From IMG/VR virus record IMGVR_UViG_3300050821_010639, positions 32,001 to 96,000 of that record: 64,000 nucleotides of DNA; one strand, written 5' to 3'. The translations under genes and the position numbers were made by a program. Each line of letters starts with the position of its first letter. Positions within the stretch are counted from its first letter, which is position 1. Under the pieces are notes generated by a model that did not search any database, was not told where the DNA came from, and worked only from the letters and a program-made list of their open reading frames with translations. Origin of the DNA: a virus. This document shows positions 28,830-62,945 of this stretch, piece after piece.

Positions 28830-31800
28830 TCACCGCTCCCGGCGCCAGACGTCCAGGCCGTCAAGGGCCTCGCCGGTCTTCGTGTAGCCGTTCGTGGTGT
28901 CGCCGACGGCGGCGCGGGCCATGAAATTGGTCTCCGGCACCTTCATGGCCCCGGACGGGTCCTCCGCCCACGCCTCACGGCCGGTGTACTCCCCTAGCCA
29001 CTCCTGCCAGGCTTCGGGTGTGCGCAGCCGCTCGGCGCGGTCGACGCGCCCGAAGTCCTCGGCGGTGGCCGGGGGCAGCTCGAAGACCCGGCCGATGAAC
29101 GGCTCGGGCCACTGCTCGATGTCGACCGGGTGCTCACCCGTAGGACTGCTGAGCAGCAGCCGCCCTCGGCGAGACGACCCGTCAGCCTCCCGGTGCCGGA
29201 AGTCGTCAAGGGCCCGCTGCTGCTCAGCCGGGGTTAGTCCTCCTTCAGGTGCCACGTCATCACCTTCCCGTCCTCCACCCAGCGCCCGTAGGAGTGCGCG
29301 GGCACGCAGTAGTTCCAGGGGATGCGCCTGCTGATGCCACGCGTCAGCACCACGCCGGCCTCGGCACCGCAAGAGTGCTCGGCCGGGCCGCGGTACCGGC
29401 ACTTCTTGCCGGGCTCGGCGACGCCCCACTCGGAACCCTCCTGCACGGCCTCCCAGTGGTGCCCGGCTTCCGCCGCGTGCGGCGGCTCCGGCCGGGTGAA
29501 CCCGCCCGTCACGGTGACGGCAGCGTCGTTGCTCAAGTGAGCCTCCTATTTTTACTTGACCAGAGTCTAGTGTTTCCCGTTACCCTCGTCAACAGCGCCG
29601 GGACTGCCGACGACCATCAGCTTCAGCCGTCGCAGGGGCACGCCGCAACGCGGGCAGGGCGGCACCTCGTCGCCGTCTACGTCGTCCCACCAGCACGACG
29701 CGCCAGCCTCGGAGCAGGGCTTGCAGCGCAGCAGCCTGAAGACTTCCTTGCGGCCCTGCACGCGGCGCTCCAGTTCAGCCTCGGCGCAGGGCCTGGCGGT
29801 CACCGGGCTGGCGTGCACGTGCGCGCAGGTCCAGGTCGGCCTTGCCCGGGGACCGGGGCGCAGCGCGCCATGCCAGCCGCCGGCAGCCCCCTTGATGCCG
29901 ACGTAGCCGGCGACCAGGTCAGCGCTCACGGGAAGCCTCGCGCCGCGCCAGCTCGGCCATCGCGCAGGCACGGGCCTCGTCCTTGCGGGCGTACTCGTCC
30001 AGGCAGCGCCACACGATCCGCCGGCTGGCGGAAAAGCGCGGGTCGTCCGGCGCGTCGGCCAGCAGGGCCAGCCAGTACCCGCCGTTCAGGGCCGGGGCCG
30101 GGAACAGCAGGCTAGGCGGCGGGGCCTCGCCGTACCCGGCGGTACGGACCATCACCCCGCCGCCCTCAACGGACTCGAAGGTCACCAGGGACAGGCACAG
30201 GCTGCCATTCGGGTGCTCTAGCCACGCCTGGAGCCGCTGGCGCTCAGCGAGGGACAGGCAGGCGGCGTGCTCACCCACGGAGAGCCTCCGCCGTGTCGGT
30301 CTCGTCAAAGAACGGGGGCAGGCCCTGCTCCTCGCGCATCACGTTCAGCGCGCGGGCGCACACCGGGCAGTACGGCGCCTTCCGCACCCGGGCCAGCGCC
30401 CCGGCCGAGGGCTCGAAGCGGTTCCCGTGCTCGTCCACGTCAACCGGGCGCTCGGTCACCGGGTCGATAAGGACCGTCGGCACCCTGTCCGGGTCGAAAG
30501 CGAAGATCCCGCCGTGCACGAAGCACGGGCCGAGCGCGACGGTGACAGCGGGCTCGCTCACAGGGTGTCCCGCCAGTCGCCGGTTTCCCGGGCCTGTGCC
30601 GTGAGCGGCCTGGAGCCGGACAGGCCCGCGGACTCGAAAGCCACCTGGATGGCCGTCAGGGCCTTAGCCAGGTCGCTCACGGTGCTCAGGCGGCCCCGGG
30701 CCTCGTCGGCTGACATCATGCCGAGGCGGACGGCCTCGGACATCTCCCCGGTCGCCGAGACAGCGCGGCTAAGGGCCTCGTCCCGCACCCGGGCCCCGCA
30801 GTCAGCGGCCTCGCCGGGAGCCGGAACCCCGGTGCGGCGGGGAAGAGCGGACTTCCCCGCCGCCCAGGCCGGGACCGGGGAGGTGCCAGGACCGCGCGCG
30901 GGCAGGCCGGGCACCCTCGCCTTCTCCGGCCGCCGCGGGGCCGGCCTCAGCGCGGCGGCGCGGCGGCGCGCGCAGATGGCGCGCAGCAGCCGGCGGTACC
31001 GCCGGCCGGCCAGGAGGATGAGCGGGAGCCGCAGCAGCTCCGGGGCCGTCAGGTACCGGTACCAGGGCCGGGCCACGGCCAGGTGGACCACCCAGAAGAA
31101 GAAAACGATGACGGCCAGGCCGAGGAACGTGCTCACGAGGCGTCCAGCATGGCGATGACGCGCTCCAGGGCCTCGGTGTCCCGGTGAGCCATGCCGCCCG
31201 GCTCGCCCTCCCGGGCTGCCAGCAAGCCGACCAGGTGGCCGCGGGCAGCCTCCGCCGCGGCGGAGGCATCCGGGCCGTCCTCGCAGCGCAGGTAGTAGCC
31301 GGCCGCGTGCGCGGCGTTCACCAGGTCGACAGCCGAGCGGGGCAGCTGGCCGGGGTGGTACTCCCAGTTGACGTCCCCCAGGTCCCGCGCCCGCCGACGC
31401 AGCTCCTCCAGGCGGGGAGCCAGGCCGCCTGCGGCGGCGAAGAGCGCCGGCCGGTCAGCCGGGGCGACCCGGACGCGGGTCTCGGAGTTGCCGCGCGCGA
31501 AGCAGAGGTCGACGTCCTCGGGGTAGTCCTGGTTCGGCCGGGCGTAGATCCGGTCCTGGGGGCCGCCCGAGGACGGCAGGGCCAAGCCGGGCCCGTCGTA
31601 CGGGAGCGGCTGGCCGCCGGCTACCTGCATCGGGCTCCGGCGCAGGTGCCGCCTCCCGTTGCCTGGTCCCATGTGGTCCATCGTGCCTGCCCTTCACTAG
31701 GGTTCCGGGGAAAGAGTAAGCCCCGCCAGCTGACAGTCCCAGCGTAGCGGGGCTTTTGACTTGAGTCAAGAGAATCAGGAGTAGGCCAGGTCGCTGGCCC

Positions 31801-32026
31801 TGTCGTAGACGCGCCGGCGCAGCGCGTCAGGGTCGCCCCCGAGCCGGCGCACCTCCTCCGCCAGCCGGCTGGCGACCGCCAGGGCGGCCACGAAGGTCTC
31901 GCCGGGAGCCTCCTCGCCCATGGCCAGCAGCTGCTCCGTGCCCAGGCTGCCGCCCTCGTAGGCGGTCAGGCCGGCCAGCGCGGTCAGCAGCGCCTGGCTC
32001 GCCCTCATGCGGCCGGCCACGGGCAC
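28830..32026 (-). other. Run of small hypothetical CDS (e.g. 29234-29536, 29919-30308, 30271-30561, 30558-31136, 31133-31681, 31775-32026)
   Basis: Overlapping start/stop codons and high GC3; several carry CxxC motifs. Confidence 0.55.
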
Positions 32027-32388
32027 CTCCTGGTGGTTGAAGTAAGTGGGCTGCCTGCCCGGCAGGCTCCCTCGCGCCGTCCGGAAGACATGTCAGCTTC
32101 CAGCCGGCGGTCCAGGGCGGGGGCTCGCACCCCGCTGGGGAAACCTTGCGCCGAGGCACATACGCCGGGGGAGCTAGGCTCGACCGGCTCAGCGCACCCG
32201 GGGCGAAGCCCGGGTCCCGCGGCTCTATCAAGGTGGCGGCGGGGGACGTTCACCGGGGCGGGGAGGGGTGGCCCCCCGCTGGTGTCAGGCAGCCGGCCCT
32301 GTGCCCGGGAAAAACAACGGAGAATCCGTGTAGATGAATCCCCGGGCAAAGACAAGCTTTTAGTACGTGCGAGCCGATTCGGTTTCAT

Positions 32389-34860: not shown

Positions 34861-37800
34861 CTAAGCGCGCGCCTCGCGCACTACCGCGCGCCGCACGCTT
34901 GCCATGCCCATGCCGTCTGTGTCCACGTACATCAGGTCAGCAGCGGCGTAGATGGCGCTGTGCGGCGCGCCCTTCACTATGACGTCTGCGGCTTGCGCGC
35001 TAGGCGCCTCCACCAGGCTGGTGATCAAGTCGTCTCCGGTCACTGTGCTGCCTCTCGCTCGGTTGCCATACCCCCAACCTACCGCATGGCTTGACTCAAG
35101 ACAAGAGATCTGGCGCATTGGCCGTATGAGCGCACTGACCGCACAAGACATCGCCGACGGGCGCTGGCAGGTACCGCGCAGAACGGGCCAGGAAAGCCCT
35201 AGGGCCCGCACAGAGCGTCTGTGCGGGCCCTAGGCATGCGAGAGGAGCTAGCGCCCCCTGGTACGGCTCCTGGCCACGTACGCGCGCCCGTCACGCGCCT
35301 CGCGCGAGTTGGCCACAGCGCGCAGCGTGCGCGCCTCACTGGCGGGAATAGACAGCAGCGCGCTGCGGTCGGCGAGGCGCCGTACCTCTGGCGTGGGGAC
35401 GTCGCGCACGTCAGCGATGACGCGGCATGCCCGCGCGAGGCGCGCGCGGAACGTTCGGTCTTTCATGGTGCCTCACCTGTATGAGTCGGGTTGCTTGACA
35501 CGAGTCTAGCGCATGGCTTGACCGCAGACAAGGCAAAAGCGCCCCCTGGCCGTACGTGGCCAGGGGGCGCTGTGGAGGGTCGCTAGCCGGCCAGCGCGGC
35601 GGCTACGGCCTTGCGGAAACGGTACGGAGTGAGCATGCGGTCCGCGTAGGCGCGCGCCGCGTCCTGCAGCGCCGGCGAGGCGCCCAGCAGTGCCCGCGCG
35701 TCGTCCGCCGCCGCGTGGTAGCCGTCGGAGTGCCCCGTGCGCTCAAGCTCGTCAGCCACGTGGGCTACCTCGATGGCGCGCGGCGGAAGCTTCTCCTGAG
35801 CGCACCATTCGTCGGCGTACAAGCCGAAGTCCCGGTCATGGGTGAGGCACACGCGGATAGCCGCGTCCCCCTCGACTTGCTCGTAAACGCATGACTGCTG
35901 TGCTGTGTCGGTTGCCATGCCCCCAATGTAGTGCACGGCTTGACTGGAGTCAAGACGCCGGCGCACCCCGGGAAGGCATCTCCCGGGGTGCGCTGGTGAG
36001 GGGCTTAGAACACGGCCAGCGCGTTCAGCACAGCCTCGTCAAGGCCGCGCTGGGTAGGCGCCCCGGTAGCGGCGGCGCGCACGGAGGGGAAACGGGCCAG
36101 CATCGCGCACGCCATCTCGCGGGCGCCGCCGTACTCGCCCGCGTCCCCGCCTACCCGGCTGATGGCCGTGCGCACGGCTGTTACGACGTCAGCCGCGCCA
36201 CTGGCGGGCTCGTCACCCGGCACCGCGTAAACGGCCAGGTCGATGTCCCGTTCGGCGATCGAGCCCAGAGGGTTGACCACGCCGCGCGCGATTTCGGTCG
36301 CGTGCCGCGGGCCCGTGATGCCCTGCACCGCACTGTCTAGGTAGAACGTCGGGACGGACACGCTCCCGTGCCAGTCTCCGTTGTGCGTGAGGATTTGCCC
36401 GGTTACCGCGTACATCGTCATGGTGCCTGCCCCTGCTAGTCGGTTGCGCTTGCTCACGAGGATAGGTGAGAGCTTGACACGAGTCAAGCCATGCACGTGA
36501 GGCGCTGTAAGGCCCGTAGCGGCACGCTGGCGAGTTGGGTAGTCAGGGGCACGCGGCGAGGCGCTTAGGGGGCGCTACGGGCCTTACAGCGCCTCGCGCG
36601 GGCACTTGCGCCGGCTCTCCCAGTACGGAACTTGTCGGCACCCGGTATTACCCGCTTCCCGCATCACGCCTACGTGCGCGGACAGCGCAGCGCCCCCGGT
36701 AGGGCTTTGACCCCCGGGGGCGCTGTGGCAGCAGGCGCTAGCGCTTACGCGCGCCCCGCCCGTGGCCGGCCGTACCTCTCCGCCCACGCCTTTGCGCTGG
36801 CCAGCGTGCGGTAGTAAGGCGAGTGCTGGTCATACGGGTATCCGGCCACGGTCGCGCGCCACGTGTTCCCGTCTCCCGGGAAGTTGGTCACGGTGGCGCT
36901 GTGGTACTCACTCGCGCCGCGCCATTCCGTGTAGCGCTTCCCCTCAAAGTCGAAGGGCTTGCGCGCCCATGTCATTGCGTACGGGTCGGCTGCCTCGCTC
37001 ACGGCTAGCGCCCGTTCCTGGCCAGCGCGGCACGGTGCTGGACTGCCGCGCGCAAGCGGCTACGCGGTGAGCGGGTGCGGTGCGCGATGATGGTTCGCAC
37101 CATGCGCAGCTGGGTTAGCGCCTCGCCGGTAACCGGCCCGGGGACCTGCGCGCGGTAAGCCGGCTCGCACGCGCGCAGCTCTGCCGTTGTCATGGCGGAT
37201 GCCGCGCGGTAAGCCTCGCGCCTCGCGTGCGCTATGGCCCGGTCAATTAGCGGTGCCCTGGTCATGATGTGCCTGCCCTTGCTCTGGCCGCGCCGTGGCG
37301 GCGCGCGCTCTGCTTACGAGGATAGGTGAGCGCTTGTCTTGAGTCAAGACGGGATCTTAGGCGGGCACGACAAATCCCCGCCGTTCATCTTCCATCGATG
37401 AACGGCGGGGACTGTCACACCTGAGGCCAGGCTACCCGTGTACGGGGCAGCTCGTGCCCGCGCACGCCTCACGTGAGCACGCGCCGGGCATCTCCGCGCG
37501 GTACGCGGCGAGGCCGGCCGGCATGGTTTCCGGGTAGTGCTGCCAGCGCCAACGGCACTCCCCGCACGCGCCGCACGCGCCGCACGCGCCGCGCCACAAG
37601 TCGCAGTAAGTGAAGTTCCGGCAGAACGCGCACCAGCCGTAAGCCGGCGCGCGGTCGGGCTGGCCGGCGCCCCCGCTTGACTGGTACGCCTCGTTGTCCG
37701 CGTGACCGTGGTCAACGGCGTAGTCCCCGTAGGTGTCCGCCGGCGCGCTGCTGTCAAAGCCTGCACTGAAACTCGGCATGATGTGCCTGCCCTAGGTCGG

Positions 37801-38478
37801 TGGGTGTCTGCTTGCCACGATAGGTGAGAGCTTGACTTGAGTCAAGCGTTAGCGCTGCACTCACAGCCTGCGCTAGGCAGGGGCGGGATGGGGCCGACAT
37901 CACCGGGCCGGCGTATGGCGAACATCTCGACCATGGGCGAGGCGCTGTAGGGCACGTAGCGGAACACGCGCGCGAACGTGCCGGCCGGCTCGCACGTGGT
38001 CGAGATGTCACGCGCCGCGCGCTCTAGCCGGTCCGTGAGCGTGCCGTAACCCTCCCGCCCGCTAACCCACTGGCCCCATTTCCACTGGCCGTTTGGGCGG
38101 TAGACCTCTACCCGGTAGTTGCGCCCCATGTCGTTCATGACTGCCTGCCCTTGCTAGTCGGTTGCCTGCCACTACGATAGGTGAGAGCTTGACTTGAGTC
38201 AAGACACAAGCTAGCCCCGGTAGGCGACCCCTACCGGGGCTAGCTGTCGACCCGGCCTAGCGCCTCGCGCGGGACCTGGCCGCGCCTCGCCGCGTGCGGT
38301 CAGCGCTGCTGTCGCGCGAGGCGCGCGCCACCTTGAAGCCTCGCGAGGCGCTGTAGGTGACCCGTACGCCCATCCTGACTACAGCGCCCGCGGTCCGCGC
38401 GTCAGCGAGGATTGACCGCGCTGTGTCGGGCGAGTAGCGGTAGCTGGCCAGCGTCGCGATTGCGTCGATGTCTTGCAT
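34861..38478 (-). other. Cassette array of small hypothetical CDS (34861-35043, 35248-35466, 35583-35918, 36005-36421, 36745-37002, 37005-37265, 37432-37779, 37842-38138, 38257-38478)
   Basis: Most starts follow the conserved leader motif and a palindrome promoter. Confidence 0.65.
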
Positions 38479-38515
38479 GACGTGCCTGCCCTAGTTCGGT
38501 GCGGATGGGTGGGGG

Positions 38516-38785: not shown

Positions 38786-38934
38786 TGGTTGCCTGCCCTT
38801 GCTAGTCGGTTGGCGTCTTGCCCTGCCCACCAGTATGCATGAACGCTTGACTTGAGTCAAGAGGATTCGGGAGACGGGAACACGACAGCGCCCCCGGGAA
38901 GCACCTTCCCGGGGGCGCTGCCAGCGCGGGGCGC

Positions 38935-40002
38935 CTAGGCGAGAGCGGCGGTAAGCCTCTCGCCCATGACCGACGCGAGAGCGTCAAGCGCCTGCGCGTC
39001 TTCCTTGGCCGTGACTCCGGTCACCATGTTGAGGTAGGTGCGCTCCATCCGGCCGCCGTCGGCACCTGAGACGTTGCGCTTCCACGTGTTGTGGGTGTTG
39101 CTCAGCTGAATGACGCCGAACGCGGTACCCGCCCACGGGCGCACCTTGGCATCGTGCCGCCACATCGCCTCGTACGTCTCGCGCAGCTTGACCGCGTTCG
39201 TGTACCTGGCCCCGCCAGTGCTCGACTTGGGGTCAGCGGCGGGAACCGGGGCCACCAGGGCCAGCCACGCGGCGAAGTCCGCCTCAGTGACGTCCACCGA
39301 CTGGAGAGCGGCGGCGGCCTGCGCGAACTCGTCTCCGGCCTGGTAGACCAGTCCCAGCGCGTCGCGCACCTCGGTCAGCTTGCCGATGCTGTTACGCGAG
39401 TGCTTGACCTTGAACTTGGTGCGCGCGGAGGAAAGCGCCGCAGCGAGCGTGTTATCACATACCGCTGCGGTCACCCCCGTGGCGTAGGTGCTGGAGAGCG
39501 TCCCGTCTACCGACGTCGCGGCCAGGATGTAGGGGGTGAACTCGAAACCGCCCACCTCAAGACCCGATCCGGTCAGCTGCGCTTGCATGAACGCGACGCC
39601 GCGGTTGCGCAGCAACCCGACGGACTTGGTGCCCAGTTCGCCGCGCGAGGTGTCGAGAATGGCGGCGATCTGGTCGGCCGTCCACTCCTTGTACCCGTGC
39701 ACCTGGTAACCCTGCTTGAAGACGCCGAGCACCGCGCCGTTGTCCGGGGTGACGATGACCTTGCGGGAAGGGTCCTTGATGACCTGGCGGTTACCGTCCG
39801 CGTCGGTGTACTGCGCGAACATCTCGGCTTCCGCGAACTCGACCGACAGCAGCCGCTCAACCTCCTCGGTCGGAACGGGCCCGTCGAAGTGCGAACCGTC
39901 GGTCATGTACTCGCCGCTTGCCGCCCACCAGGCCGGCCCGTCCGACCCCACGTAACCTACGCGGATGTTGGAGCGGAGCCATTCCATCGTTTCCTTGCTC
40001 AT
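38935..40002 (-). CDS. DUF932 family protein
   Basis: YILAATSVDGTLSS...AVCDNTL, KHSRNS, WAGTAFG. Confidence 0.85.
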   Translation of the reverse strand: MSKETMEWLRSNIRVGYVGSDGPAWWAASGEYMTDGSHFDGPVPTEEVERLLSVEFAEAEMFAQYTDADGNRQVIKDPSRKVIVTPDNGAVLGVFKQGYQVHGYKEWTADQIAAILDTSRGELGTKSVGLLRNRGVAFMQAQLTGSGLEVGGFEFTPYILAATSVDGTLSSTYATGVTAAVCDNTLAAALSSARTKFKVKHSRNSIGKLTEVRDALGLVYQAGDEFAQAAAALQSVDVTEADFAAWLALVAPVPAADPKSSTGGARYTNAVKLRETYEAMWRHDAKVRPWAGTAFGVIQLSNTHNTWKRNVSGADGGRMERTYLNMVTGVTAKEDAQALDALASVMGERLTAALA

Positions 40003-40110
40003 TGCGTGCCTGCCCTTTCACTGCCGGGGGCGTGTCCCCCTTGCTTGACTTCAGTTAACCAGACGTCGCCTGTACGTGTCAAGTCCCTCCCGACACGTAC
40101 CGCTCAGCTT

Positions 40111-41319
40111 CTACGCGGGCACCCGGACCTTGGCCGCGGGCACGATGGCATAGCCGCGCGTGGCCCCGTCCGAGCGCTTGAGCGCCGCTACCTCGTTCGG
40201 CATGCCCTTGGCGCGCTCCCAGTTAAGGACCGTGCCAGCGTCCCGCACAGCGGCGCTGCGCGCCTCGCTGCGCCTGGCGTAGGCCGCGCCCACCCATGTG
40301 CGCGTGTCCCTGGCCTCGCCCGGCTCACGCGTTACGCGCATCACGCGGAACGGGCCCCCCGCGCTGTCCTCCGCCTGCGCGGTCACGAGGCGCGCGCGCA
40401 CCGACCCGGCGGCCGGCCCGCCCGGCGCAGTCGCCTGCTGCGCGGCGCTCACCCGCTCGGCGCGCGCGTTCTCGGCGTTCACGAACACCGCGTGAGCCGA
40501 CGCGCCGGCCCCGGTAATGGTGTACTGCTGCGGTTCACCCTTGGCTATGTTGCCCTTGACCATCTTGATGACGCGCAACTCGGGGTCATCCTTGGTGCGC
40601 TCCACCATGAACGCGAGGCGCAGCGCGTCGACAACCGCCGGCGATCCGGAGACCTTCCCGTCCTTGGTCAGGTGGTGGATGACACCCAGCGCCACGTCCG
40701 CTTGCCGCGCGAACTGCTTAAGCGACCGCATCACCATGCGCGCGGACCGCACCGAGGTGATGTGGTCGTTTTCGCCTAGCAGGTCGGCCAGCGGGTCGAT
40801 GACCACCAGGGCGACCGCGGGCCCGCCAACTCGGTTGAGCTTGCCCACCTCCGTCAGCAGGCGCCCCATGTCCCCGGGCACCTCGAAGGGGGAACCGTCT
40901 TTCCACTCGGACAGGTCGTGCACCAAGCGGATAGCGCCGCTCTCTTCCGACAGCGAGGGGTCGAGGCCGAATTCCGCGACCGCGACCGCTATAGCCGCGC
41001 GCAGGCGCGGTGCCAGGTCCTCGAACGGGTCGTCTTCGGTGCCGGCGATGTAGACCACGCGCCCGGGGTCGCGCCGTACGGCCTGGTCCTCGTTGGGAAA
41101 CGGCAAGCCGAGCGCGACCCGCGCGATGACCGCACAGAACAGCATGCCCTTGCCTGCCCCGCCAACAGCCGCGAACAGCGCGGGGTTGCCAATGGGGATG
41201 TAGTCCGGCCACAGCCAGCGGCGCGGTATGTACGGGATATTGGAGTAGTCGACCGCAGCCAGGTCGTCAGCGTCGACCGGCCCGACGTCGCCCGCGGGCG
41301 CGTCGAAGATAAACGACAT
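40111..41319 (-). CDS. AAA_25 / RepA-like helicase-family ATPase
   Basis: WLWPDYIP, AVGGAGKG, LVVIDPL, IHHLTK. Confidence 0.85.
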   Translation of the reverse strand: MSFIFDAPAGDVGPVDADDLAAVDYSNIPYIPRRWLWPDYIPIGNPALFAAVGGAGKGMLFCAVIARVALGLPFPNEDQAVRRDPGRVVYIAGTEDDPFEDLAPRLRAAIAVAVAEFGLDPSLSEESGAIRLVHDLSEWKDGSPFEVPGDMGRLLTEVGKLNRVGGPAVALVVIDPLADLLGENDHITSVRSARMVMRSLKQFARQADVALGVIHHLTKDGKVSGSPAVVDALRLAFMVERTKDDPELRVIKMVKGNIAKGEPQQYTITGAGASAHAVFVNAENARAERVSAAQQATAPGGPAAGSVRARLVTAQAEDSAGGPFRVMRVTREPGEARDTRTWVGAAYARRSEARSAAVRDAGTVLNWERAKGMPNEVAALKRSDGATRGYAIVPAAKVRVPA

Positions 41320-41411
41320 GTGTGCCTCACCTGTATGAGCTGGGATGATGGTGCGAGGCTACACCCATGGCTTGACTTGAGTCAAGTGGATGCAGCCTCG
41401 CTGAAATGCTG

Positions 41412-44716: not shown

Positions 44717-44761
44717 GATGGTGTGCCTGCCCTTCAGTTAACGGTGCCTGGTGGTGCGGGG

Positions 44762-50755: not shown

Positions 50756-50874
50756 CGGGTGCCTGCCCTTCGCTCGGTTGCTGATAGCTCCACTGTAGTG
50801 CATGGCTTGACTTGAGTCAAGAACGTAACGCAGCCCCGAACGGGTGACACGCCCGGGGGCCTCGCGCACTCTCG

Positions 50875-51417
50875 CTAGCCGCGGCGCGGCCGGTAGAAGT
50901 AGTGCGGCACGATGTTCAGCGCGTAGGTGCCGACGAACCTCGGCATGCTGCCGGCCAGCTCCCCGCAGTGCCAGTCAGCGTGCACGGCCAGGCGCTCCCA
51001 CACCTCGCCCCCGGTCCGCAGGCCGACCGGCGCGTCAGGGGGTGCCGGCGCGTCCCACCGTGCGAGGTCGAACGCGTCGAGCGTGTCCAGTGCCTTCATC
51101 ACCGCCAGGCGGAATTGCAGCAGCAGGTACGGCCTCGGGTAAACGTCGCTGCTCACTGCCTTGCTGACGGGGCCGGCCTCGGCCGCGTCCGTGTCGTTGA
51201 ACACCTGGTGGAAATCGCGGCTGAACAGCAGCTGGCCATTGAACCACGAGCTGAACAGGTCAGCGACGCAGGCCAGATGCCCGGTCGTCCAGGCTGCTGA
51301 GAACCCGGTAGCGTTCGCCGCGAAAAACTCCTCCTCGCTAAGCGGCTCCAGCGCGAGCACCAGCCTGTTGCCGGCGCTGTCCATCTGCCGCTCGATGAGC
51401 TGCCTGAGATCCGTCAT
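50875..51417 (-). CDS. DinB/YfiT-like metal-binding protein
   Basis: SAAWTTGHLA and HADWHCGEL histidine triad. Confidence 0.8.
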   Translation of the reverse strand: MTDLRQLIERQMDSAGNRLVLALEPLSEEEFFAANATGFSAAWTTGHLACVADLFSSWFNGQLLFSRDFHQVFNDTDAAEAGPVSKAVSSDVYPRPYLLLQFRLAVMKALDTLDAFDLARWDAPAPPDAPVGLRTGGEVWERLAVHADWHCGELAGSMPRFVGTYALNIVPHYFYRPRRG

Positions 51418-51570
51418 GTGCCTACCTCTCGTTCGTGCCTGCATGACGGAGCCCCCGCGGGTCGCGCTTCGTCCGCGGGGGCTCCTGCCCGCCTTCTCTT
51501 CCTTGGCTCATCGGCCGACCCCTTGGCGGTTTCAGGGGCACCGCCCTAGGAACGGTGCGGAAGCTTGTTG

Positions 51571-52050
51571 TCAGTCGGCGAGGCACACCGGCATCTGGGC
51601 GGGCTGGTTGCCCGGGATGGTCAGCGTGTAGCGGCGGGTGTCGCGGTCGTACCTCGCCGACACAGGGCCGTTGGTCGTCTCCGCAGTCGCCGACAGCGGC
51701 CAGGTGCCGAGCGCCGCGTGCAGCAGCGAGTCAACCAGGCTGGAGGCGATGTAGGCGGAGGTGAGGATGGTGACCGCCTTGTCCCGCGTGACGCTCTCGT
51801 AGGTGACCGGACCCGGGGGAACCTCGCGGTTCCAGCCGCCGATGCGCAGCAGCGCGGCCTCGATGTGCTTGCAGAGGGTCACCGCGATGCCACCGTCGGC
51901 CTCGACCAGCCGGCCACGCCGGTTGATGAAGTCCGCGCAGTCGCAGGACGGAAGGGTGACCGCGTGGGCCGCCGCGCCGTTGCTCTGGCTGCGAACCAGC
52001 GCGGTCGTGGGGTGGACGGTCATGTCGTACATGGCCTTGGCCTGAGCCAT
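51571..52050 (-). CDS. SWIM zinc-finger protein
   Basis: SCDCADF...LCKHI. Confidence 0.75.
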   Translation of the reverse strand: MAQAKAMYDMTVHPTTALVRSQSNGAAAHAVTLPSCDCADFINRRGRLVEADGGIAVTLCKHIEAALLRIGGWNREVPPGPVTYESVTRDKAVTILTSAYIASSLVDSLLHAALGTWPLSATAETTNGPVSARYDRDTRRYTLTIPGNQPAQMPVCLAD

Positions 52051-52159
52051 TCGTGCCTGCCCTTCATCGGAGCTTGTGGTTCAAGGGTACCCGATAGCTT
52101 GACTTGAGTCAAGACATAAACGAGGCGCGCACCCGGGGAAGGTGCGCGCCTCGCGGGGC

Positions 52160-55100
52160 CTACTCAGCCGCAAGCAGCTCCGGCCGGAAGGCAGCGCGGA
52201 CCTTGGCGTCCAGCGCCTCCCACAGCTCAGGGGTGAGCATGAGGTCGGTCAGCCCCAGGTCCAGGCGCACCGCGCCCGAGCGGTCGCCCACGACGCCGAT
52301 CCGGCGCCCGTAGGTGTCGAAAACCTCTCCGCCCTTGGTGTCGTTCATGTGCCTGCCCTTCAGCCGGGGATTCTTGCCTACCCCTCAACTGTACTGCTCA
52401 GCTTGACTTGAGTCAAGTCTATCGGCTGGATCTTCCCTTGGTCCTCGTCGCCCTGGCCGCGCCACGCTCAGCCCGGCTGGTCACGACCGACACCACGCGC
52501 CGGGCCAGGTCCGCCGCGGGCTCCGCGCGGCTCACGTCCACGCGCACGCCCTTCGACCAGGCCACAGCCTCAAGGTCCGAGCGCCGCAGGCCAGCCAGGC
52601 GCTCAGTCGCCCGGTCCTTGCCCACAAGGCGGATAGCGGCTAGTACCTCGTCGTCTGTCATGGCGTGCCTGACCTTTGCTTGACTGCTGTTAAGCATCAG
52701 GCTAGGCCAGGCTCTTGACTCGTGTCAAGACATGACGAGAGGCCTTGCGGACGGGGGCACCGCAAGGCCTCTCGGGGAATTACGCGGGCGCCTGGGGCGG
52801 GCGCCGCGCCTCCAGTATCACACAGGTCTGCGGTGACGGCCAGCCGGCTGCCAGTCCACCTCGCTGCCGGCCACCAGGGCCTCCCCGACGTAGACCGCGG
52901 CCGGCGTGTCCCCGGCCAGGTGAACCTTCACCACGAGCACGCCGTCCTCATTCAGCTCCGCGCAGACCTTGGAGCCCTCGACGTCCAGGCAGGGGCGCGG
53001 TTCGCCAGCCTCGCTCACGGCCTGCACCGCATCGGCTGACTCGGTAGCGGCGTTCATGGCGCTCTCCCCTCTCGGGTTACCCCGGGGTAACCCTAACCGG
53101 TCCGCTTGACTTACGTAAAGCGAAACGGGCCAACATGATGGCGGAAAGTGGGGGAAACTGGGCACTTGCTGGTCCAGGCGTCATCGTCCCAGGTGAGCCG
53201 CGGGCACGAGCAGTCCTCTCCCGGGCGCATCGGGCAATAGCACCCGGTCCCCGGGTGCTCCTTCCAGCCGGGACGCCGGTCTGCCCTCGGCACCAGCGAC
53301 CGCAGCCGCTCGCCGTCGACCACCAGGCGCGCACCGCAGTAGCGGCAGGGCAGCAGCTCCGGGTCCGGCTCGCCCGCCATCGCCTCGCACGGGCTGAGTC
53401 CCGCGCTGTGCACCCAGTAGCCCCAGATCCCCTGCCAGAACATGTCACGGTGGTGAGCCAGGCAGCAGGCCAGCGTCCCGGCCCAGGGCCCGCGCGGGGT
53501 GTACGCCCGCGCGGCCTCAGCCTCGGCCTGGGATACCCGGTCGTACCCGGTCACCGGCGCGGCCACCAGAGCAGAACCAGCCCGATGACCGAGAGCGCCA
53601 GAGTAGCCGTGCCGGCGACCGCAGCCGGCTTGTACGGCGCCCACAGACCAGTCGTCAGCGCCAGCAGCCAGATGACGACCCCGAGCCAGTTGGTCCGGCT
53701 CACGGGTAACCGCACCTCCGGCCAGGTCGCGTAGCTCCGGCCGCGCACCGAGCCGTCCGGCCTGGTAGCCGCCGCGTTGGCGAACAGGTGCCCGTGCTCG
53801 CGCCACCAGGAGGTAAGCGCCGCGTACTCGGACGCGTCCCAGGCCAGCATCGCGGCGCGCGCGGCCAGGGCGTCCGCTGACGGCCCGCGCAGGCGGCCTA
53901 GCGCCTCCTTGCGCCTGCGCTGGTACTCCGCCTGCTGCGCCCGGCGGTAGCGCTCACGGACGACGGAGCGACGCTGAGGGTGGCAGTAGTCCGGCAACGG
54001 CGTGCCGACGGCCCGGACCAGTACCCGGCTCGCGTACCACTCCCTCGGCTTCCGCACCCAGGCAAATTTAGCGCTCAGGGCAGTACAGGGCTGCCCCTTG
54101 ACCGCCTTGCACTCCGGGCAGTCTTCCGTCTGCCCCTGCTCGGTGGTGATGGGGCCGCCGACGTCGTGCGCGTCAGAGTAGATCACCGGGCTCACCGCGT
54201 CTCCAGCCAGGTCGCCGGCCACCAGGACGCGCAGCCGTCGTCCAGCTCCACGAACACGCTCGCGCCGTCAAGGCTGATGAACCAGGGCACCAGGCCCGGC
54301 TGCGGTACCCACCGGGCGTAGCTCTCCGGCTCGCCAGCGGCCACGGCCCCGCGCTGGCCGCGCCGCCAGTAAACCCGCCGACCGAGCCATACCGGCGTGC
54401 CGGGCTGGAACCGCTGCTCAAGGGCCGGCAGCAGGTCACGGGTAAACGGGCCCTCCTCCCAGCCGCCCAGCTCAGCGACCGCCGCGGAGAGGTCCGCAGC
54501 CTCGGCCTGGTCGAAGCCGGACGACGCCACCTCGCGCCTCTGGTAGACCGTCACCACGGCCAGCGTGCCGGTCATGACTTGCCCGGCGTGGCCTGAACCA
54601 CCTGGTCAACGGTCACCGTGACCGCCTTGCTCCCGCGCAGCAGCCGTAGCTTGTTCGGCTTGCGCGGCACCCGGGGGTCAGGACTCTGCTCCACCGAGAT
54701 GGTGCGGATGACCTGCCACCTCCTGAGCTGGTAGATCACCTCATCGTTGACCGCGATGCGGCCGGGCGCCCCGCTCACGCGTACTCCTCAGTGCACCGGC
54801 CGGCCCGGTGCTGGTACCCGGCCCAGAACTCGCCGTCAATGAGCGCGGCAGTAGCCCAGGCCGGGGAGCCGGCAGGGATCTCGCCGTTGCAGTCGGTGCA
54901 ACGGTGCGCCTTACGCGTCGCCTGCACCTGACGGCGACTCAGGGCGACGAACGTGATTTCCGGCTCGGGGCGACAACAGGTGTCGTAACAGTGCATTTAG
55001 TCCTCCTCGCACGGGTAGCAGATGACGCACGTGCGCATGACGTCCCCGGGCCGGCAGCCCCCCTCGGGGTACCGTGCGCGGTGCAAGGCCGCGCCCTCCT

Positions 55101-55437
55101 CGCGCCAGTTCTCGCCAGGCTGCGCGAGGCCCGGACGGCAGCGTGCCCAGTCCGCTTGCACCTGCTCGGCGCTGCGGTCGAACAGGGTCAGCCCGAACTG
55201 CTCGATGTGGCGGAGCCAGCTCAGCCTGACGCGCTCGCGCCCGGCCGGGCTGTAGTCGTGGCCCAGGGGGCCGATGTCGCCGGCGCTGACCCCGCCGGCC
55301 AGGCAGACCGCAGCGCGGAGGTCCGCCATCGTGGTCTGCTGGTCGGCGTCCGCTACCGGGTCACCCGTCCGCGGCCGGGCTGCGAACATGAGCCGCAGGT
55401 TGGCGTGCATCTGGAGGCTGCCGGGTGCCGCGGTCAC
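52160..55437 (-). other. Cassette hypothetical CDS (52160-52348, 52419-52661, 52818-53058, 53551-54222, 54192-54575, 54572-54778, 54775-54996, 54997-55437)
   Basis: Short coupled ORFs; several Cys-rich. Confidence 0.55.
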
Positions 55438-55850
55438 TCGAAGCTCACTGTCTGCCCGGCCAGCGCCAGCGCCCGCTCGTAGCTGCCAGCGTCGAAGATG
55501 GCCTGACGGAACTCGCGAAGCTCGGCCAGCGGGACGGCCCGAGCGCGCATCGCACCCAGCGTCACGGACAACAGGACTGCGGTGTCGCCGTCATGCAGCG
55601 ACGCGCGCTTCACCCGGACGTCCGGGTAGCGGACGGGCTCGCCAGGGCCGAACTCGGTGGCCAGCACGTCGGCGACCATCTGCTCGTGGTACTCGGCAAC
55701 GTCAACCGGCACGATAGCAGCGATGCGCTTGCCGCTGCTGGCCAGCCAGGTCTTGCGGTCCTGGGCACCGGCCAGGTCGGCCGCGTCCTGCACTTCTTCG
55801 GCCAGCTCCTCGTCGTTCCTGACGTCCAGCTCGATCGTCTTCTCGTCCAT
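55434..55850 (-). CDS. Protein with a Phd/YefM antitoxin-like N-terminus
   Basis: LAEEVQDAA...TWLASSGKRIAAIVPVD resembles the Phd/YefM pattern. Confidence 0.45.
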   Translation of the reverse strand: MDEKTIELDVRNDEELAEEVQDAADLAGAQDRKTWLASSGKRIAAIVPVDVAEYHEQMVADVLATEFGPGEPVRYPDVRVKRASLHDGDTAVLLSVTLGAMRARAVPLAELREFRQAIFDAGSYERALALAGQTVSFE

Positions 55851-55916
55851 GTGCCTGCCCTTCGGTTGGTTGCCTGGTTACAGGGTAGCCTAATGCTTGA
55901 CTTGAGTCAAGACACG

Positions 55917-56465
55917 CCAAAGCCCCGCGGGCAGGGCAGGCAACCGAGATCCGCGGGGCTTCAACGAGAGGGGGAGCCACCGTCTACACACGGCTCAGGA
56001 GAACCCTCGCTAAGCGACAGGCAGGCCAGCTGGCCTGCCTGTCACGCTCTTGAGTTGTACGCGGGTGCCGGGAGCGGACCAGCCCGTCGACTGGAACCTC
56101 CCGGCCCCCACTTCGCTCCGTGTGGGGTGCACCTAAAGCCGCAGGGAGCGCGTCCGCGACCTTCCACACTTGCTCCCGGGCCAGGGGTTTCACTGGTCCG
56201 TAGCGGTGTTGCAGGCCGCCAATGTCCGTACGCTGCCCCGAGGGGCCCGTACTAGCTTGGGCTTAGGTCAAGCTCACGCGTTCGCCAGGTACTCGACCTG
56301 GCCCGGGAAGTCTCTGTTGAGTTATATCCGGCTTACCCTGCCCTTGTGAGTGAGGCCCTGGGCGGGAGGGGCTGCGACTCGCGCTGTAGCCGGTGCTGCT
56401 ACCTTTCTGGGCGCTCCTGGCCGGTCCTCCTCTTGCCTGCTCGCTGACCTTCCGGCCTCGCTCAC
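55917..56465 (-). ncRNA. Putative large structured ncRNA (~550 nt) with an anti-leader 3' loop
   Basis: Own promoter (TTGACA-N18-TATCCT), no credible ORF, many stems (28-bp palindrome 56016-56043; 12-bp pair 56174-56185/56297-56308), and a terminal hairpin plus UUU. Confidence 0.65.
55920..55961 (-). terminator. Intrinsic-terminator-like hairpin with a 20-nt loop
   Basis: 11-bp stem aagccccgcgg/ccgcggggctt ending in UUU on the minus strand. Confidence 0.65.
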
Positions 56466-57057
56466 ATTCAAAGGATAAGGGATCGACTTGACTCGTGTCA
56501 AGTGATCTCCGGTATTTCCTCTCCGCCAGGCTGACCAGGGCCGGAGCCGGGCCGGTAACGCGCTCCTGGGGCCCGCGCTCGCGCTGCCACGCCACGGCCA
56601 GGCCCAGCCGGGCCCGCCAAGCGAGCGCGGACACCGCGTTGGGGCTCATGCCGGAGGTTCGCGCCAGCTCGGCCGGCGTGCGCCCCTCCACCTCGGTCTG
56701 CCACAGCACCGCGCGCCAGCGGGGCGGCAGCGAGTCGAACGCGCGACGGGTCATCCGCTGCTCCTCGGCCGCGGTCGCCAGGTCCCCGGCGCCCGGCACG
56801 CGCACCATGCGAGGATCGAGCGGCACGGGGTCGATGCGCCTGCGCTCGGCCAGCCAGTCGCGTGCCAGGTTGCGCACCGCGGCCAGCAGGTAGGGCCGGA
56901 ACGCGCCGTCGGGGCCGTGGCCGGCCCGCTGCCTGGCCAGCACCCGGGTGAACGCCTCCGCCACGATGTCATCGGCCGCGTGCGCGGGCACCAGGGCCAG
57001 GGCCACGCGGCGCGCGGCGCTCCGGTGCTCGGCGTACAGGTCGGCGAACTCGGGCAT
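56263..57057 (-). CDS. ECF-type sigma-70 factor
   Basis: FADLYAEH, ADDIVAEAFTRV, AFRPYLLAAVRN, LPPRWRAVLW...SPNAVSALAWRAR. The last ~90 aa run into the putative ncRNA. Confidence 0.88.
   Translation of the reverse strand: MPEFADLYAEHRSAARRVALALVPAHAADDIVAEAFTRVLARQRAGHGPDGAFRPYLLAAVRNLARDWLAERRRIDPVPLDPRMVRVPGAGDLATAAEEQRMTRRAFDSLPPRWRAVLWQTEVEGRTPAELARTSGMSPNAVSALAWRARLGLAVAWQRERGPQERVTGPAPALVSLAERKYRRSLDTSQVDPLSFECERGRKVSEQARGGPARSAQKGSSTGYSASRSPSRPGPHSQGQGKPDITQQRLPGPGRVPGERVSLT
56472..56502 (-). promoter_or_regulatory. Promoter of the putative ncRNA
   Basis: TTGACA within the palindrome, 18-nt spacer, TATCCT. Confidence 0.75.
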
Positions 57058-59544: not shown

Positions 59545-62348
59545 CTAACCACCGTGCTTCGCCTGGTTGTGCTCCCGGGCCCGATTGATAACGACGTCCA
59601 GACTCGGGTGGTAACCGATCTCGAAGTAAGCCCGGAGGTTCGCTGCTGCGCACTTGTGGCAGTGCAGTGCGGTCGTGCCCCGGTCAGGAATGACGGTGAA
59701 CTGGCCGCTGAACTCCGACAGCGGCAGCCCTGCGGGCTCGCGGATGTCATCGACGCCGTGCCAGTACATCCGCTCCGCCACCCGCCAAAGCAGGTCATAC
59801 AGGTTGTCACCACTGATGGTGACGTTCTCAGCCGTCGTGAGCGGCCGGTCCTCGTCGTCGTACTCGGTGTCACGGATGCGCGGGTCCACCTCGTTGTCGA
59901 CCAGCCAGCGCTTCAGCCGCGCCATGGTCGACTCGCCTTGCGGGTAGTCGCGGTCATCAGCCGCGCGGGCCTGCTCGCGCTCGCTCGGCCGGGTGTCCTG
60001 GTCAAGCAGGAACGGCACGCCGCGCGTCATGTAGTGGCGGAAAAACTGGTCCCAGCCGTCGTGCGCAGTGTCGCTCCACACCTCCCGGCCGTCGACCTCA
60101 ACGGCGATGCCGTCGGTCCCCTCGTCCCAGGTGATGAACTTGATCGTCTTCAACGTGCCCGCCCCTCGTCGCCTGTGCCTGCTTGCGGGTCAGCTAGCCC
60201 CGCAGCCGCGGGGCTGCGCCCCCAGGCCTCCCGGGCCGCGTCGTTCCCGTAAATGACGTGAAACACCTGGTCCTTGCGCCGTCGCCGTTCGGTCTTGTCG
60301 GGAGCGGCACTGATGTACGCCGCTGCCTTGCGGTACGCGGCGTCACTCGCCTCGCTCATGAGCCCGCCCTTCTAGTTGCGCGCGCAGTCCGGCCAGCCGG
60401 ACGCGCCTACCCCTGTTACGTGCTGGCCCGCCGGGCAGAACACGGTGGGCGGGGTGAAGATCGCGGGCACGGCGTCGTGGTGCCTCAGGTGCCCGGCCAC
60501 GGTAGCGGCGATCATGAAAAAGGCGACCCCCGCGACCACGGTCACCAGGGCAATCACCACAGCCGACCTCATGACTCGCCTTCAATCACCAGGTCGTTGT
60601 CGGTCTGGTCGGCGCCGAAGCGCGGGATGCCCGGCTCAGCGCCGGACCCGATGATGACGCCGTTGGCCGCGCGCCGCTCGCCAGGCCGCAGTTCGATGTT
60701 CAGGGTCTTGTCTCCCGGTGCCTGTGTCACGGCCACAGCTTACGCAGTGTCTTGACTAGAGTCAAGTAATCAGACATTTTCGGCGGGCCGCCGACCGTCC
60801 GCAGCCAGAGGAAGACGCCAGCCGCGCCGTTCGCGAACCCGAAGGCCACAATGCCGAACGGGAGCCACCAGCCCTCCAGGCCGGTCCAGAGCATGAGCCA
60901 GAAGCCGACGCTCATGCTGAAAAAGCACATGATGACCCAGGGGTGGCGCTGCACGGGGTTCATCCGAGAGTCCCCTCACCGCTAGCGAAGATGCCGTCCG
61001 CGGCCTCGCGCACGGTGGACAGCGTGAAGTCGTGCGCCGGGAGCACGCCGGTCAGGAACCGCGCTGCCACGTCAAGCGGGTCAGGCTCCGCCGGCGGGTC
61101 CGGCAGCTCGGGCGCGTCCAGCTCGGGCCACCACTCGGCCACGCTGCTGCCGTCCTCCCACCAGGTGACCTCTTCCGAGCGCTGCACCTCCACGGAGGCG
61201 CCGAGCCACGTCAGCATCAGAGCCCGGCTGTACGCGCCCGACGCTGACAGGTACAGGTGGTTGCGCGGCCAGCGGAACCCCCGCTTGCGCAGCGCGTTGC
61301 GCCGCTTGCGGTCCTTGACCGCGGCGAGCACCTGGGGCCAGGCCTCCGGTACCCACCCGGGCTCACCTGACCCGGGCGGGTAGAGGACGTTCAGCCGGTA
61401 GACGTGGACAGGGCGCTCAGGCATCGTCCGCACCCGCCAGCAGCTCAGGCTCCAGCGACCAGAACAGGACGGTGACCGGCTCGCCGGGGGCGATGCCCAG
61501 GTGCTGCTGGACTACGGCCAGGGCCGACTTGAAGGCTGAGGCGCGCGTCTTCGCCCGGCCAGCCTGCTCAGCGGTCATGGTGCCCTCAACCGTCTGCGCA
61601 GTGAGTGTGCCGAAGCCCAGCTTGTTCCACTGCACGGTCATGACCCAGAACCAGTTCACCGGTCCGCGCCCCCGTCGGTGATGGCGCGGGTGATCGCGTC
61701 CGGCTCAAGGCCGGCCCGCTCGGCCATCCGGGTAACCATGGCCTCAAGGTCGTTGCGGGACTGCTCCACCACGGTCTCGGCGTGCTCGTCCAGCTTCCTG
61801 GTCGCGAACTCCACGTTGGGCACGGCGTTGGCGATGGCGGCCCGCAAGTCGGACAGCCGGGCCTTCCGCTCTGCGGCCGGAGCCGGGGGCTTGGCGTTCA
61901 GCGCAGCCTCGTAAGCAGCCTCAGCAGTCTGGATCTTGGCAAACGCGTCGTGCGCTGCAGCCCGCACCTCGTCGTGGGTGAGCGAGAACCGGGGAGCGGG
62001 GCGGAGGCCAGGCCGGTCGCCCGGCTCCTGCGTGCCGGTCGCGGTCCACTCGATCGTGCAGGGAACGCCGTCGCCCTGGCCGGTACTGGCCACGAACGAG
62101 GCGAACTGCGCCATCGACAGGCTGATTTCGCAGACCATCCGCTCCTGGTACACGCGGTCAGTGTGCAGGTCGCGCTTGCGGGTAGCCTCGTGGACCGTGA
62201 CCCGCATGTACTCCGGGTGCCGGACATCGGACTGGAACAGCACCGCACCCGGGGTAGAGCTGATCCGGTGAAGGCTGACCAGCCCGAACGCCGGGTGGGT
62301 TTCGTCCCCGTTCTCGCCGGTCGTGGAGTCCTCGTACTGCTTAGGCAT
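59545..62348 (-). other. Hypothetical CDS run (59545-60153, 60150-60359, 60372-60572, 60727-60963, 60960-61433, 61417-61659, 61656-62348)
   Basis: Coupled ORFs, two of them small membrane proteins. Confidence 0.55.
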
Positions 62349-62859
62349 TTCCCTCTCCTCTCTTAGTCAGCGGGTACTCGCGGCGGTAGCCGAGCAGCGC
62401 CTCCAGCGGGTAGCGCGCGCCGCGTGCCTTGCGCGCCGCGGTCAGCGCCTCCTGTGCCGCGGCCACCCGGCGCTGAGCGTCAGCGAGGTCCGCCGCCGCC
62501 TCGTCGCGCGCATGCTCAGCAGCCACCAGGCCGGTCACGTCCGCCTCTTCCTCGATCCTGGCCACCAGGGCCAGGCCCTCGTCCGTCAGCCCGTAGTACG
62601 AGCGGGTGTGCAGCGTCCGCTTGCTGGCCAGGCGGCGCTTGTGGAGCCCGCGCGCGGTCCTGTCCAGGTCGGCGATGCCGCGCAGGTTGCCGACCTCGCC
62701 GCCCAGCATCAGGCCGTCGGACACCAGGTCGGTGATGGTGAACATCGTGTGGTGCCCGCTCGGGCACGCGGCGGTCGGCTCGCGCCGGCGCGCGGTCGCG
62801 TCGCGCAGCCCCACGAGAACGACGATGGCGCTCTCGCTCAGGGTCTCGATCTCTGCCAT
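62341..62859 (-). CDS. Winged-helix-like protein with a C-terminal coiled coil
   Basis: RTARGLHKRRLAS...YYGLTDEGLA, PadR/MarR-like wing. Confidence 0.55.
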   Translation of the reverse strand: MAEIETLSESAIVVLVGLRDATARRREPTAACPSGHHTMFTITDLVSDGLMLGGEVGNLRGIADLDRTARGLHKRRLASKRTLHTRSYYGLTDEGLALVARIEEEADVTGLVAAEHARDEAAADLADAQRRVAAAQEALTAARKARGARYPLEALLGYRREYPLTKRGEGNA

Positions 62860-62945
62860 CGGGTGCCTGCCCTCTGCTCGGAAGTGCTTACGACACCAGG
62901 CTACCGGATGACTTGACTTGAGTCAAGAGAGTGAGGATATTCCGC

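Follow-up and report, generated by a model that had tools for sequence, protein, structure and literature searches.

Which letters of a sequence that stands ahead of one gene start after another serve the ribosome, and what else keeps them constant, is the question raised by the early region of a large, uncultured soil actinophage. The stretch analyzed here, called the window, comprises 64,000 nucleotides (bases 32001-96000 of the 152,046-bp virus record IMGVR_UViG_3300050821_010639), and coordinates refer to the window unless stated otherwise. The element in question, hereafter the leader motif, is the 12-mer AAGGGCAGGCAC with the 8-nt core GGCAGGCA. It is very probably a translation-start element that is under selection. 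Overall it is read as a start-associated sequence (SAS) of a new sequence type that is probably addressed by an RNA loop of the phage resembling the anti-Shine-Dalgarno sequence, a partner to which about even weight is given.

Thirteen exact copies of the 12-mer were identified, all on the minus strand between 31683 and 55862, with 0.03 copies expected by chance. When up to one mismatch was allowed, 22 copies were found, all on the minus (coding) strand between 31683 and 62874; the figure of about 20 exact copies given in a first-pass annotation of this DNA is corrected accordingly. No 10-mer of the whole genome is more over-represented than GGGCAGGCAC, with 21 copies. In 21 of the 22 copies an ATG or GTG that opens an open reading frame (ORF) follows 0-6 nt after the end of the motif, and the strand bias is 26 versus 3. 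Genome-wide, start-linked copies are confined to 31.6-63 kb of the window, with one further copy at genome position 3235. This lone copy (genome position 3235-3243, minus strand) lies 28.7 kb before the start of the window, ahead of a 754-codon ORF and with a promoter block nearby. On the plus strand, a leader-like CAGGTGAGGCAC followed 33 nt on by GGGCAGGCAC was observed at 12040-12094; these words stand on the non-coding strand inside minus-strand genes and are probably due to chance.

The start-linked copies are also restricted by gene class. Small genes, mostly orphans, fill the window from 63000 to 31600 in the direction of transcription and make up the early cassette region. Of the 54 ORF segments of this region, 15 have the exact core at their start, compared with 1 of 113 elsewhere (Fisher p = 1e-7; the ORF filter was crude and missed small genes). 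The gene caller, which relies on the G+C content at third codon positions (GC3), is simple, misplaces many starts and misses small genes, and gene-class counts are approximate. Replication genes (window 1-31000) are without the motif and begin instead with a mixture of GGAGG-type sites, GTG starts and overlaps. The start association, the limitation to cassette genes and the different starts of the replication genes had all been described in the first-pass annotation and were confirmed, as were the variants that it listed (CAGGTGAGGCA, GAGGTAGGCAC and AAGGTCAGGCAC). We infer that the motif acts as the regulatory 'code' proposed there. The copies are as follows (aa, amino acids).

62863-62874, minus strand: one mismatch, GAGGGCAGGCAC; spacer ccg; ATG 62859; ORF 62341-62859 (172 aa)
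55851-55862, minus strand: exact, abuts ATG 55850; ORF 55434-55850 (138 aa), the first gene past the anti-leader hairpin described below
52665-52676, minus strand: variant AAGGTCAGGCAC; spacer gcc; ATG 52661 (80 aa)
52349-52360, minus strand: exact, abuts ATG 52348; ORF 52160-52348 (62 aa)
52053-52064, minus strand: exact; spacer ga; ATG 52050; ORF 51571-52050 (159 aa)
51418-51428, minus strand: variant GAGGTAGGCAC, abuts ATG 51417; ORF 50875-51417 (180 aa)
50759-50770, minus strand: exact; spacer ccg; ATG 50755 (81 aa)
48395-48406, minus strand: exact; spacer acg; ATG 48391; ORF 47717-48391 (224 aa)
46841-46852, minus strand: exact; spacer cc; ATG 46838 (59 aa)
46552-46563, minus strand: exact; spacer gtc; ATG 46548 (74 codons; GC3 0.73, a weak coding signal)
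45939-45950, minus strand: exact, internal gene without upstream promoter; spacer tat; ATG 45935 (122 aa)
45434-45445, minus strand: orphan TAGGGCAGGCAC, in which TAG terminates the gene upstream; a terminator-like hairpin comes next in place of a gene
45309-45320, minus strand: GAGGGCAGGCAC; spacer c; ATG 45307; ORF 44762-45307 (181 aa)
44723-44734, minus strand: exact, without upstream promoter; spacer accatc; ATG 44716; ORF 44117-44716 (199 aa)
42993-43004, minus strand: exact; spacer cca; ATG 42989; ORF 42663-42989 (108 aa)
41667-41677, minus strand: second leader class CAGGTGAGGCA, as at 41323
41323-41333, minus strand: second leader class CAGGTGAGGCA(C); spacer ac; ATG 41319; AAA_25 helicase-like gene 40111-41319
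40006-40017, minus strand: exact; spacer gca; ATG 40002; DUF932 gene 38935-40002
38789-38800, minus strand: AAGGGCAGGCAA; spacer cca; GTG 38785 (89 aa)
38482-38493, minus strand: TAGGGCAGGCAC, without upstream promoter; spacer gtc; ATG 38478 (73 aa)
38141-38152, minus strand: AAGGGCAGGCAG; spacer tc; ATG 38138 (98 aa); upstream box GGCAGGCAACCGA in the leader
37783-37794, minus strand: TAGGGCAGGCAC; spacer atc; ATG 37779 (115 aa)
37269-37280, minus strand: exact; spacer atc; ATG 37265 (86 aa)
36423-36434, minus strand: AGGGGCAGGCAC; spacer c; ATG 36421 (138 aa)
35469-35479, minus strand: second leader class CAGGTGAGGCA, as at 41323
31683-31694, minus strand: exact; spacer g; ATG 31681; ORF 31133-31681 (182 aa), the last before the replication module

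A similar motif copy was observed in a close relative, G1, at the place orthologous to the orphan at 45434-45445, and the orphan may be what is left of a lost cassette.

Most motif copies lie 30-60 nt downstream of an early promoter block, in which the palindrome CTTGAC-N4-GTCAAG supplies TTGACT as the -35 element and is followed by 17-18 nt to TAnnnT. About 25 such blocks were found on the minus strand from 62921 to 31755, several of which were also picked up by an independent consensus scan; one of them is given as an example.

55896-55911, minus strand: palindrome CTTGAC-TCAA-GTCAAG of an early promoter block

As judged from the promoter positions, the leaders would be about 25-35 nt long. 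Many of them carry a second box, CAGGCAACCGA(G/A), close to the predicted 5' end, and early mRNAs are predicted to start near the CAGGCAACC box. Among 17 start-linked copies counted, 4, or about a quarter, have no promoter within 130 nt upstream, and the promoterless copies at 45939, 44723 and 38482 just trail the previous gene. The promoter block is common to at least six related phages and many soil contigs, and its 16-bp palindrome over the -35 region looks like an operator for a dimeric DNA-binding protein.

Two close relatives, G1 (148.9 kb) and G2 (151.4 kb), both first surfaced in the motif scan itself, while the more distant IMG/VR phages G6, G7, G8 and G9 were found via the promoter palindrome and hence without ascertainment on the core. 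Same-strand copies of GGGCAGGCA number 28 in G1 and 34 in G2 and are mostly clustered in the early regions. The core is kept before start codons in five relatives (G1, G2, G6, G7 and G8), the orthologues having 35-65% protein identity. At 38-59% protein identity, the orthologues of ORF 51571-52050 in five phages still carry the motif. The spacer to the ATG varies between orthologues with the core kept; for the DUF932 gene it is gca, cca or none. In G9 (G009, IMGVR_UViG_3300027313_000002) the same palindromic promoters are combined with the leader CAGGGAGGCAC, which is an unsplit canonical Shine-Dalgarno sequence plus CAC.

A scan that was anchored on the promoters and blind to the motif found the exact GGCAGGCAC downstream of 218 of 420 unique promoters, and another 102 of the 420 had one mismatch to it, which in 75 cases was at the last C; the antisense control gave 5 of 438. 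The motif-promoter architecture is shared by 114 further soil metagenome loci. The metagenome loci were picked with a pattern containing the core, and each holds at least one copy by construction. This pattern, which was designed for the hairpin together with the promoter, mostly caught promoter-leader modules on the opposite strand, as the promoter is palindromic, and is biased to the core. The first IMG/VR motif scan gave mostly single chance matches, and two of its large contigs, G003 and G004, were rejected as unrelated phages (51% and 46% G+C). A protein-based locus search with AAA_25 recovered G1 as the sole locus.

Recent duplication of whole promoter blocks, which the first-pass annotation had named as part of the outcome that would speak against its claim, was rejected. 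Among the 21 start-linked copies of this genome, the 12-mer has an identity of 0.93, whereas identity drops to 0.34 over the 12 nt and 0.26 over the 20 nt ahead of it and to 0.31 over the initial 30 coding nucleotides; the downstream genes are unrelated to one another, and the core is kept in divergent orthologues.

The pairing of the leader motif with 16S rRNA was analyzed with RNAduplex. Many records, those of Streptomyces and Kitasatospora among them, confirmed the actinobacterial 3' end, ...GGAUCACCUCCUUUCU. With the tail CCUCCUUUC, GAAGGG pairs CCUUUC and AGG pairs CCU, the C between them being bulged, which results in -11.7 kcal/mol compared with -9.5 kcal/mol for a bare GGAGG; the G8-type leader GAGAGGCAGG reaches -12.1 kcal/mol. 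In 313 distinct start-linked leaders, the three positions before GG (-11 to -9, opposite UUU) are 91-98% purine with A and G interchanging, and position -12, opposite C, is G in 71%. Between GGCAGGCAC and the start codon there are in most cases 0-5 nt, most often 3, the spacer is C-rich (C, CCC, CCCG, CCCA), and ATG is the start codon in 85% of these leaders (266 of 313) versus about 44% in other, crudely called genes. The bulged C has no substitution in 320 promoter-anchored leaders, and the C and A that follow AGG have 3 and 9, respectively. The earlier statement that CAGGCAC is not explained by 16S pairing therefore has to be divided: it does not hold for AGG, which pairs CCU once the C is bulged, and it stands for the bulged C itself and for CA(C). 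Given the A/G interchange opposite the three U, half of the 'unexplained spacer' is ordinary Shine-Dalgarno pairing. No second rRNA target was found, as neither the 12-mer nor the upstream box nor the loop complement has a site with up to two mismatches in seven actinobacterial rRNA operons. An 8-mer match in 23S rRNA was rejected as being at chance level and in the wrong subunit.

A candidate partner for the remaining letters was found in the early region itself, in a unit whose promoter is followed by neither a leader motif nor a start codon.

56472-56501, minus strand: promoter of the non-coding unit, TTGACA-18-TATCCT (10 of 12 consensus positions), palindrome centre ACGA
55967-56471, minus strand: predicted non-coding transcript body, with no frame carrying the coding GC3 signature
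55915-55966, minus strand: anti-leader hairpin with a 16-bp G+C-rich stem and a 20-nt loop; -33.1 kcal/mol, z = -4.2
55931-55950, minus strand: hairpin loop, AUCUCGGUUGCCUGCCCUGC

The hairpin lies 557 nt downstream of the promoter at 56501-56472, and the transcript is predicted to begin some 7 nt past 56472 and to stop right behind 55915. In this genome and five relatives, the interval between promoter and hairpin has a GC3 of 0.58-0.74 versus 0.85-0.95 in genes and contains no coding frame; its length varies between genomes from 340 to 920 nt, with many indels. Rfam gave no match in the window or in 55700-56700. The ACGA centre was always present in the promoter of the non-coding RNA, where it makes a perfect TTGACA. 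On the minus strand there is one strong hairpin with the antisense core in its loop, and each genome has one such hairpin. It is flanked by CCCCCUC on the 5' side and by UUUGG on the 3' side, after which the next promoter follows. The CCCCCUC tract (55967-55975, minus strand) adjoins the hairpin in nearly all of nine variants and could provide another single-stranded stretch for binding to G-rich ribosome-binding sites.

The leader core GGCAGGCA has its exact complement within the loop, in UGCCUGCC (55935-55942), and the whole loop complements GGGCAGGCA and CAGGCAACCGAG as a single fused sequence. Nine distinct variants of the hairpin were collected. Seven pairs of their 15-pair stem have compensatory double changes. 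The loop core GGU(U/AU)GCCUGCC never changes among them, and the loop flank, which does vary, is opposite the variable purine triplet of the leaders. The loop of G7, CCUGCCUUUC, differs from the anti-Shine-Dalgarno sequence CCUCCUUUC by a single additional G, which faces the bulged C. The first-pass annotation had stated that a complementary RNA is visible in the same genome; as a sequence prediction this is confirmed, and the element, 55935-55942 in the hairpin loop, is conserved. A promoter of its own, the lack of a coding signal and an exposed loop complementary to a ribosome-binding site, all expected of an antisense RNA, are likewise predicted from the sequence only. Structure and complementarity are kept in evolution, as the nine variants with seven compensatory pairs and an invariant core show.

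For 21 leaders of this genome, binding between loop and leader is predicted at a mean of -25.4 kcal/mol. Shuffled loops reach -16.0 ± 2.2 kcal/mol (0 of 200 attain the observed value), upstream regions of genes without the motif -17.4 kcal/mol and the anti-Shine-Dalgarno tail -10.2 kcal/mol. In most leaders the predicted duplex extends from the motif to the start codon. The loops also follow the leaders of their own lineage in part. A loop C faces a G at leader position -9 always in G0 and L379 and nearly always in G1 and G2, and in G7 a loop U faces A or G at this position. In three of four loop types, leaders pair longer with the loop of their own lineage, and the covariation of the loop flank with the leaders is partial.

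A single reverse SAS copy that is not linked to a gene start has been described for cluster K mycobacteriophages (PMC3203893). In Mycobacterium phage Anaya (JF704106, cluster K1) this copy, at 59870, was found to lie in a hairpin loop (CCUCCUAUCC). The hairpin is located in an unannotated gap of 385 nt (59682-60066), which is conserved in 182 cluster K records and mostly unannotated there, and its stem has compensatory changes in Niklas, Biglebops and Angelica.

Several observations weigh against the RNA loop as the partner of the leader motif. The G8 loop pairs its own leaders through the 8-nt core only, and upstream regions without the motif reach -25.6 kcal/mol at best, which indicates a high G+C duplex background. 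In G6 the motif is present and the hairpin was not found in the incomplete contig. Part of the metagenome set is ascertained on the core because the search pattern contained the core. In the cluster K phages Hammy and Krueger the homologous loop is C/U-rich and not antisense, the SAS consensus of Hammy, the sole one checked, being unchanged, and in Yuna the loop is missing. In AnnaSerena, a phage of the Microbacterium cluster EF, no antisense hairpin-loop copy was found in positions 10-56.7 kb. A protein reader would, moreover, account for the invariant letters equally well. Beside these points, no matched antisense hairpin was found in the 53%-complete contig of G9. On balance, the chance that the phage RNA loop is the partner of the leader motif is put at about one in two from the sequence data, and the step from a tag to an RNA-addressed tag, which is based on complementarity, conservation and covariation, is given the same even weight.

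The mechanism proposed for an RNA-addressed leader is as follows. The 12-mer would be the ribosome-binding part of a conserved short leader carried by early cassette genes that are transcribed by the host RNA polymerase. In the mRNA, G-RRR-GG would pair CCUUUC and AGG would pair CCU, and with one C bulged the result would be a split Shine-Dalgarno sequence with the start codon 3-9 nt away. The bulged C and the CA would be kept because the 8-mer GGCAGGCA doubles as the target of a phage RNA. The target-binding part would be the 20-nt loop of a terminator-like hairpin that ends an early non-coding transcript of 340-920 nt, and its UGCCUGCC may be read as an anti-Shine-Dalgarno sequence with one inserted G. 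This loop would cover both the ribosome-binding site and the start codon and is predicted to bind far more tightly than the ribosome's own tail. One RNA could thereby act on about 25 early mRNAs as a class and spare host and later phage mRNAs, the most likely effect being that early translation is damped or shut off as the RNA accumulates. Pairing in vivo, the sign of the effect and the ends, abundance and timing of the transcript are what we infer here.

The leader motif might instead be no more than an optimized ribosome-binding leader, in which a strong split Shine-Dalgarno sequence and an unstructured C-rich spacer provide fast and high early expression and the antisense loop is irrelevant. 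Such a design would resemble the host-takeover module of SPO1, in which promoters and ribosome-binding sites are uniformly strong. The bulged 16S pairing of -11.7 kcal/mol, the purine-only variation, which fits pairing with U, the normal spacing to the start codon and the unsplit CAGGGAGGCAC of the distant relative G9 all agree with it. However, a bulged base and a non-pairing CA should then vary or vanish, and the C was never substituted in 320 leaders; a GGAGG, as found at other places in the genome, would be a simpler solution; and the invariant complementary loop in nine hairpins with covarying stems is left unexplained. This explanation is considered unlikely. A protein reader, that is, a phage or host RNA-binding protein or a sequence-specific RNase that recognizes GGCAGGCAC on early mRNAs, is considered equally improbable. 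Its model would be T4, where RegA represses and RegB cleaves early ribosome-binding sites. The class and strand specificity of the motif, its fixed distance to starts and the invariant letters beyond rRNA pairing are what a protein site would show, and RNA and protein readers of SAS were both left open by Pope et al. (PMC3203893). No candidate protein was identified, however, most early genes being orphans, and a protein that binds single-stranded RNA would not explain why an antisense copy is conserved in a hairpin loop.

An element that acts at the DNA level, either as a transcription-factor operator downstream of the early promoters or as a short homology 'linker' for the shuffling of cassettes, is very unlikely. 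The linker version has a likeness in the promoter-stem-loop cassettes of T4-type phages, and the position of most copies 30-60 nt downstream of a palindromic promoter block, the different gene content between motif copies among relatives and the one orphan copy without a gene would be compatible with an element of this type. The strand bias of 26 to 3 speaks against it. The motif keeps a fixed 0-6 nt from the start codon, whereas its spacing from the promoter varies, and the sequence between promoter and motif is not conserved. In addition, 4 of 17 start-linked copies have no promoter in the 130 nt upstream, and for homologous exchange 12 nt would be a very short stretch.

The window has a G+C content of about 70%, and its minus strand carries nearly all genes. 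Besides small orphan genes, the early region encodes a DUF932 protein, an AAA_25 helicase-like protein and a methyltransferase-like protein, of which only the first two carry the leader tag. From 31000 to 1 follows a replication and recombination module with a family A DNA polymerase (PolA), an SNF2 helicase, a DnaB-like helicase and RecA, together with a TraG-like ATPase and a protein with sigma-70 region 4. The latter (19679-20578, minus strand, about 230-300 aa) might be a phage sigma factor that serves later genes, in keeping with the host-type promoters on early genes. The ATPase (25737-27557, minus strand) resembles TraG/TrwB coupling proteins and is unusual for a large phage that looks lytic. 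Megablast with 8 kb of the early region gave no match to cultured phages, and a search with the DUF932 protein returned actinophage homologues only, all with less than 40% identity, so that no cultured relative is available to work with.

The leader tag is a new sequence variant of a known, unexplained class of elements. The phage family supplies more than 300 distinct leaders as a natural data set, in which the letters explained by rRNA pairing are cleanly separable from those that are not, and the conserved RNA loop exactly matches the latter. The descriptive SAS puzzle is thereby turned into a two-component hypothesis that is open to compensatory mutations, partly in the cultivable cluster K phages of Mycobacterium smegmatis. 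If the hypothesis is true, RNA is the means by which a phage controls all genes of one temporal class, and high-G+C hosts gain an orthogonal translation tag that is portable. Tentatively, with somewhat less confidence than is placed in the RNA loop of this phage, SAS in general may be address tags for a phage-made mimic of the anti-Shine-Dalgarno sequence, in which a terminal hairpin loop of one early non-coding RNA would carry the exact complement of the tag and control translation of all early genes as a class. The bulged C would set early phage mRNAs apart from all others, the reverse copy of cluster K1 would be explained as well, and the nature of SAS, a question that dates from 2011, would be settled.

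The SAS of cluster K is a short asymmetric repeat, present in 11-19 copies per genome in one orientation and only in the non-structural arm, that is located 3-9 nt before start codons with a strong preference for ATG; it combines a Shine-Dalgarno core with conserved letters unable to pair with 16S rRNA and is often preceded by an upstream element (ESAS) with an inverted repeat and a promoter (PMC3203893). From 2011 on, SAS were catalogued across hundreds of actinophage genomes, with neither a reader nor a function coming to light (PMC3203893; PMC11373665 of 2024; PMC12699233 of 2025). The likeness to cluster K proposed in the first-pass annotation is upheld, as the leader motif is of the same kind in copy number, orientation, arm, distance to the start, ATG bias, conservation beyond 16S pairing and upstream element. 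All features by which SAS were defined (Pope et al., 2011) were found for it, including conservation ahead of different gene families. The sequences themselves are unlike (RRRGGCAGGCAC here, GGGATAGGAGCCC in cluster K) and do not agree within the two mismatches allowed by the family test. In contrast to cluster K, the Shine-Dalgarno sequence is here split by a bulged C, and the phage is an uncultured soil phage of 152 kb. The upstream element here, which is not homologous in sequence to ESAS, is clearly a -35/-10 promoter and contains a 16-bp palindrome. The antisense loop is invariant in nine variants here, whereas the cluster K loop matches in some subclusters only. No published description of the present leader motif was found in the literature.

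In the Microbacterium cluster EF, a SAS-like 13-mer, GGGAAAGGACCCC, occurs in about ten copies at the ribosome-binding-site position of non-structural genes and is accompanied by a weakly conserved upstream element (PMC7302621). It differs in sequence from the leader motif described here. An antisense hairpin as a rule for all SAS systems was considered and rejected, since cluster K1 has it, other K subclusters have it in part or not at all, and no example was seen in cluster EF.

Class-wide control or a uniform design of early-gene translation starts is shared with RegA/RegB of T4 and the SPO1 module, which make use of protein readers or of plain strong ribosome-binding sites; neither is known to use a matched RNA loop. 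Antisense hairpin loops that mask ribosome-binding sites are known from the c4 RNA of P1/P7, and RNAs with C-rich loops include the actinobacterial 6C/B11 and the staphylococcal RNAIII/Rsa RNAs. As in these RNAs, a C-rich loop is complementary to a G-rich ribosome-binding region, and several targets are possible per RNA. Unlike in these RNAs, the predicted loop belongs to the 3' terminal hairpin of a long non-coding RNA, and its target would be a dedicated tag on about 25 phage mRNAs.

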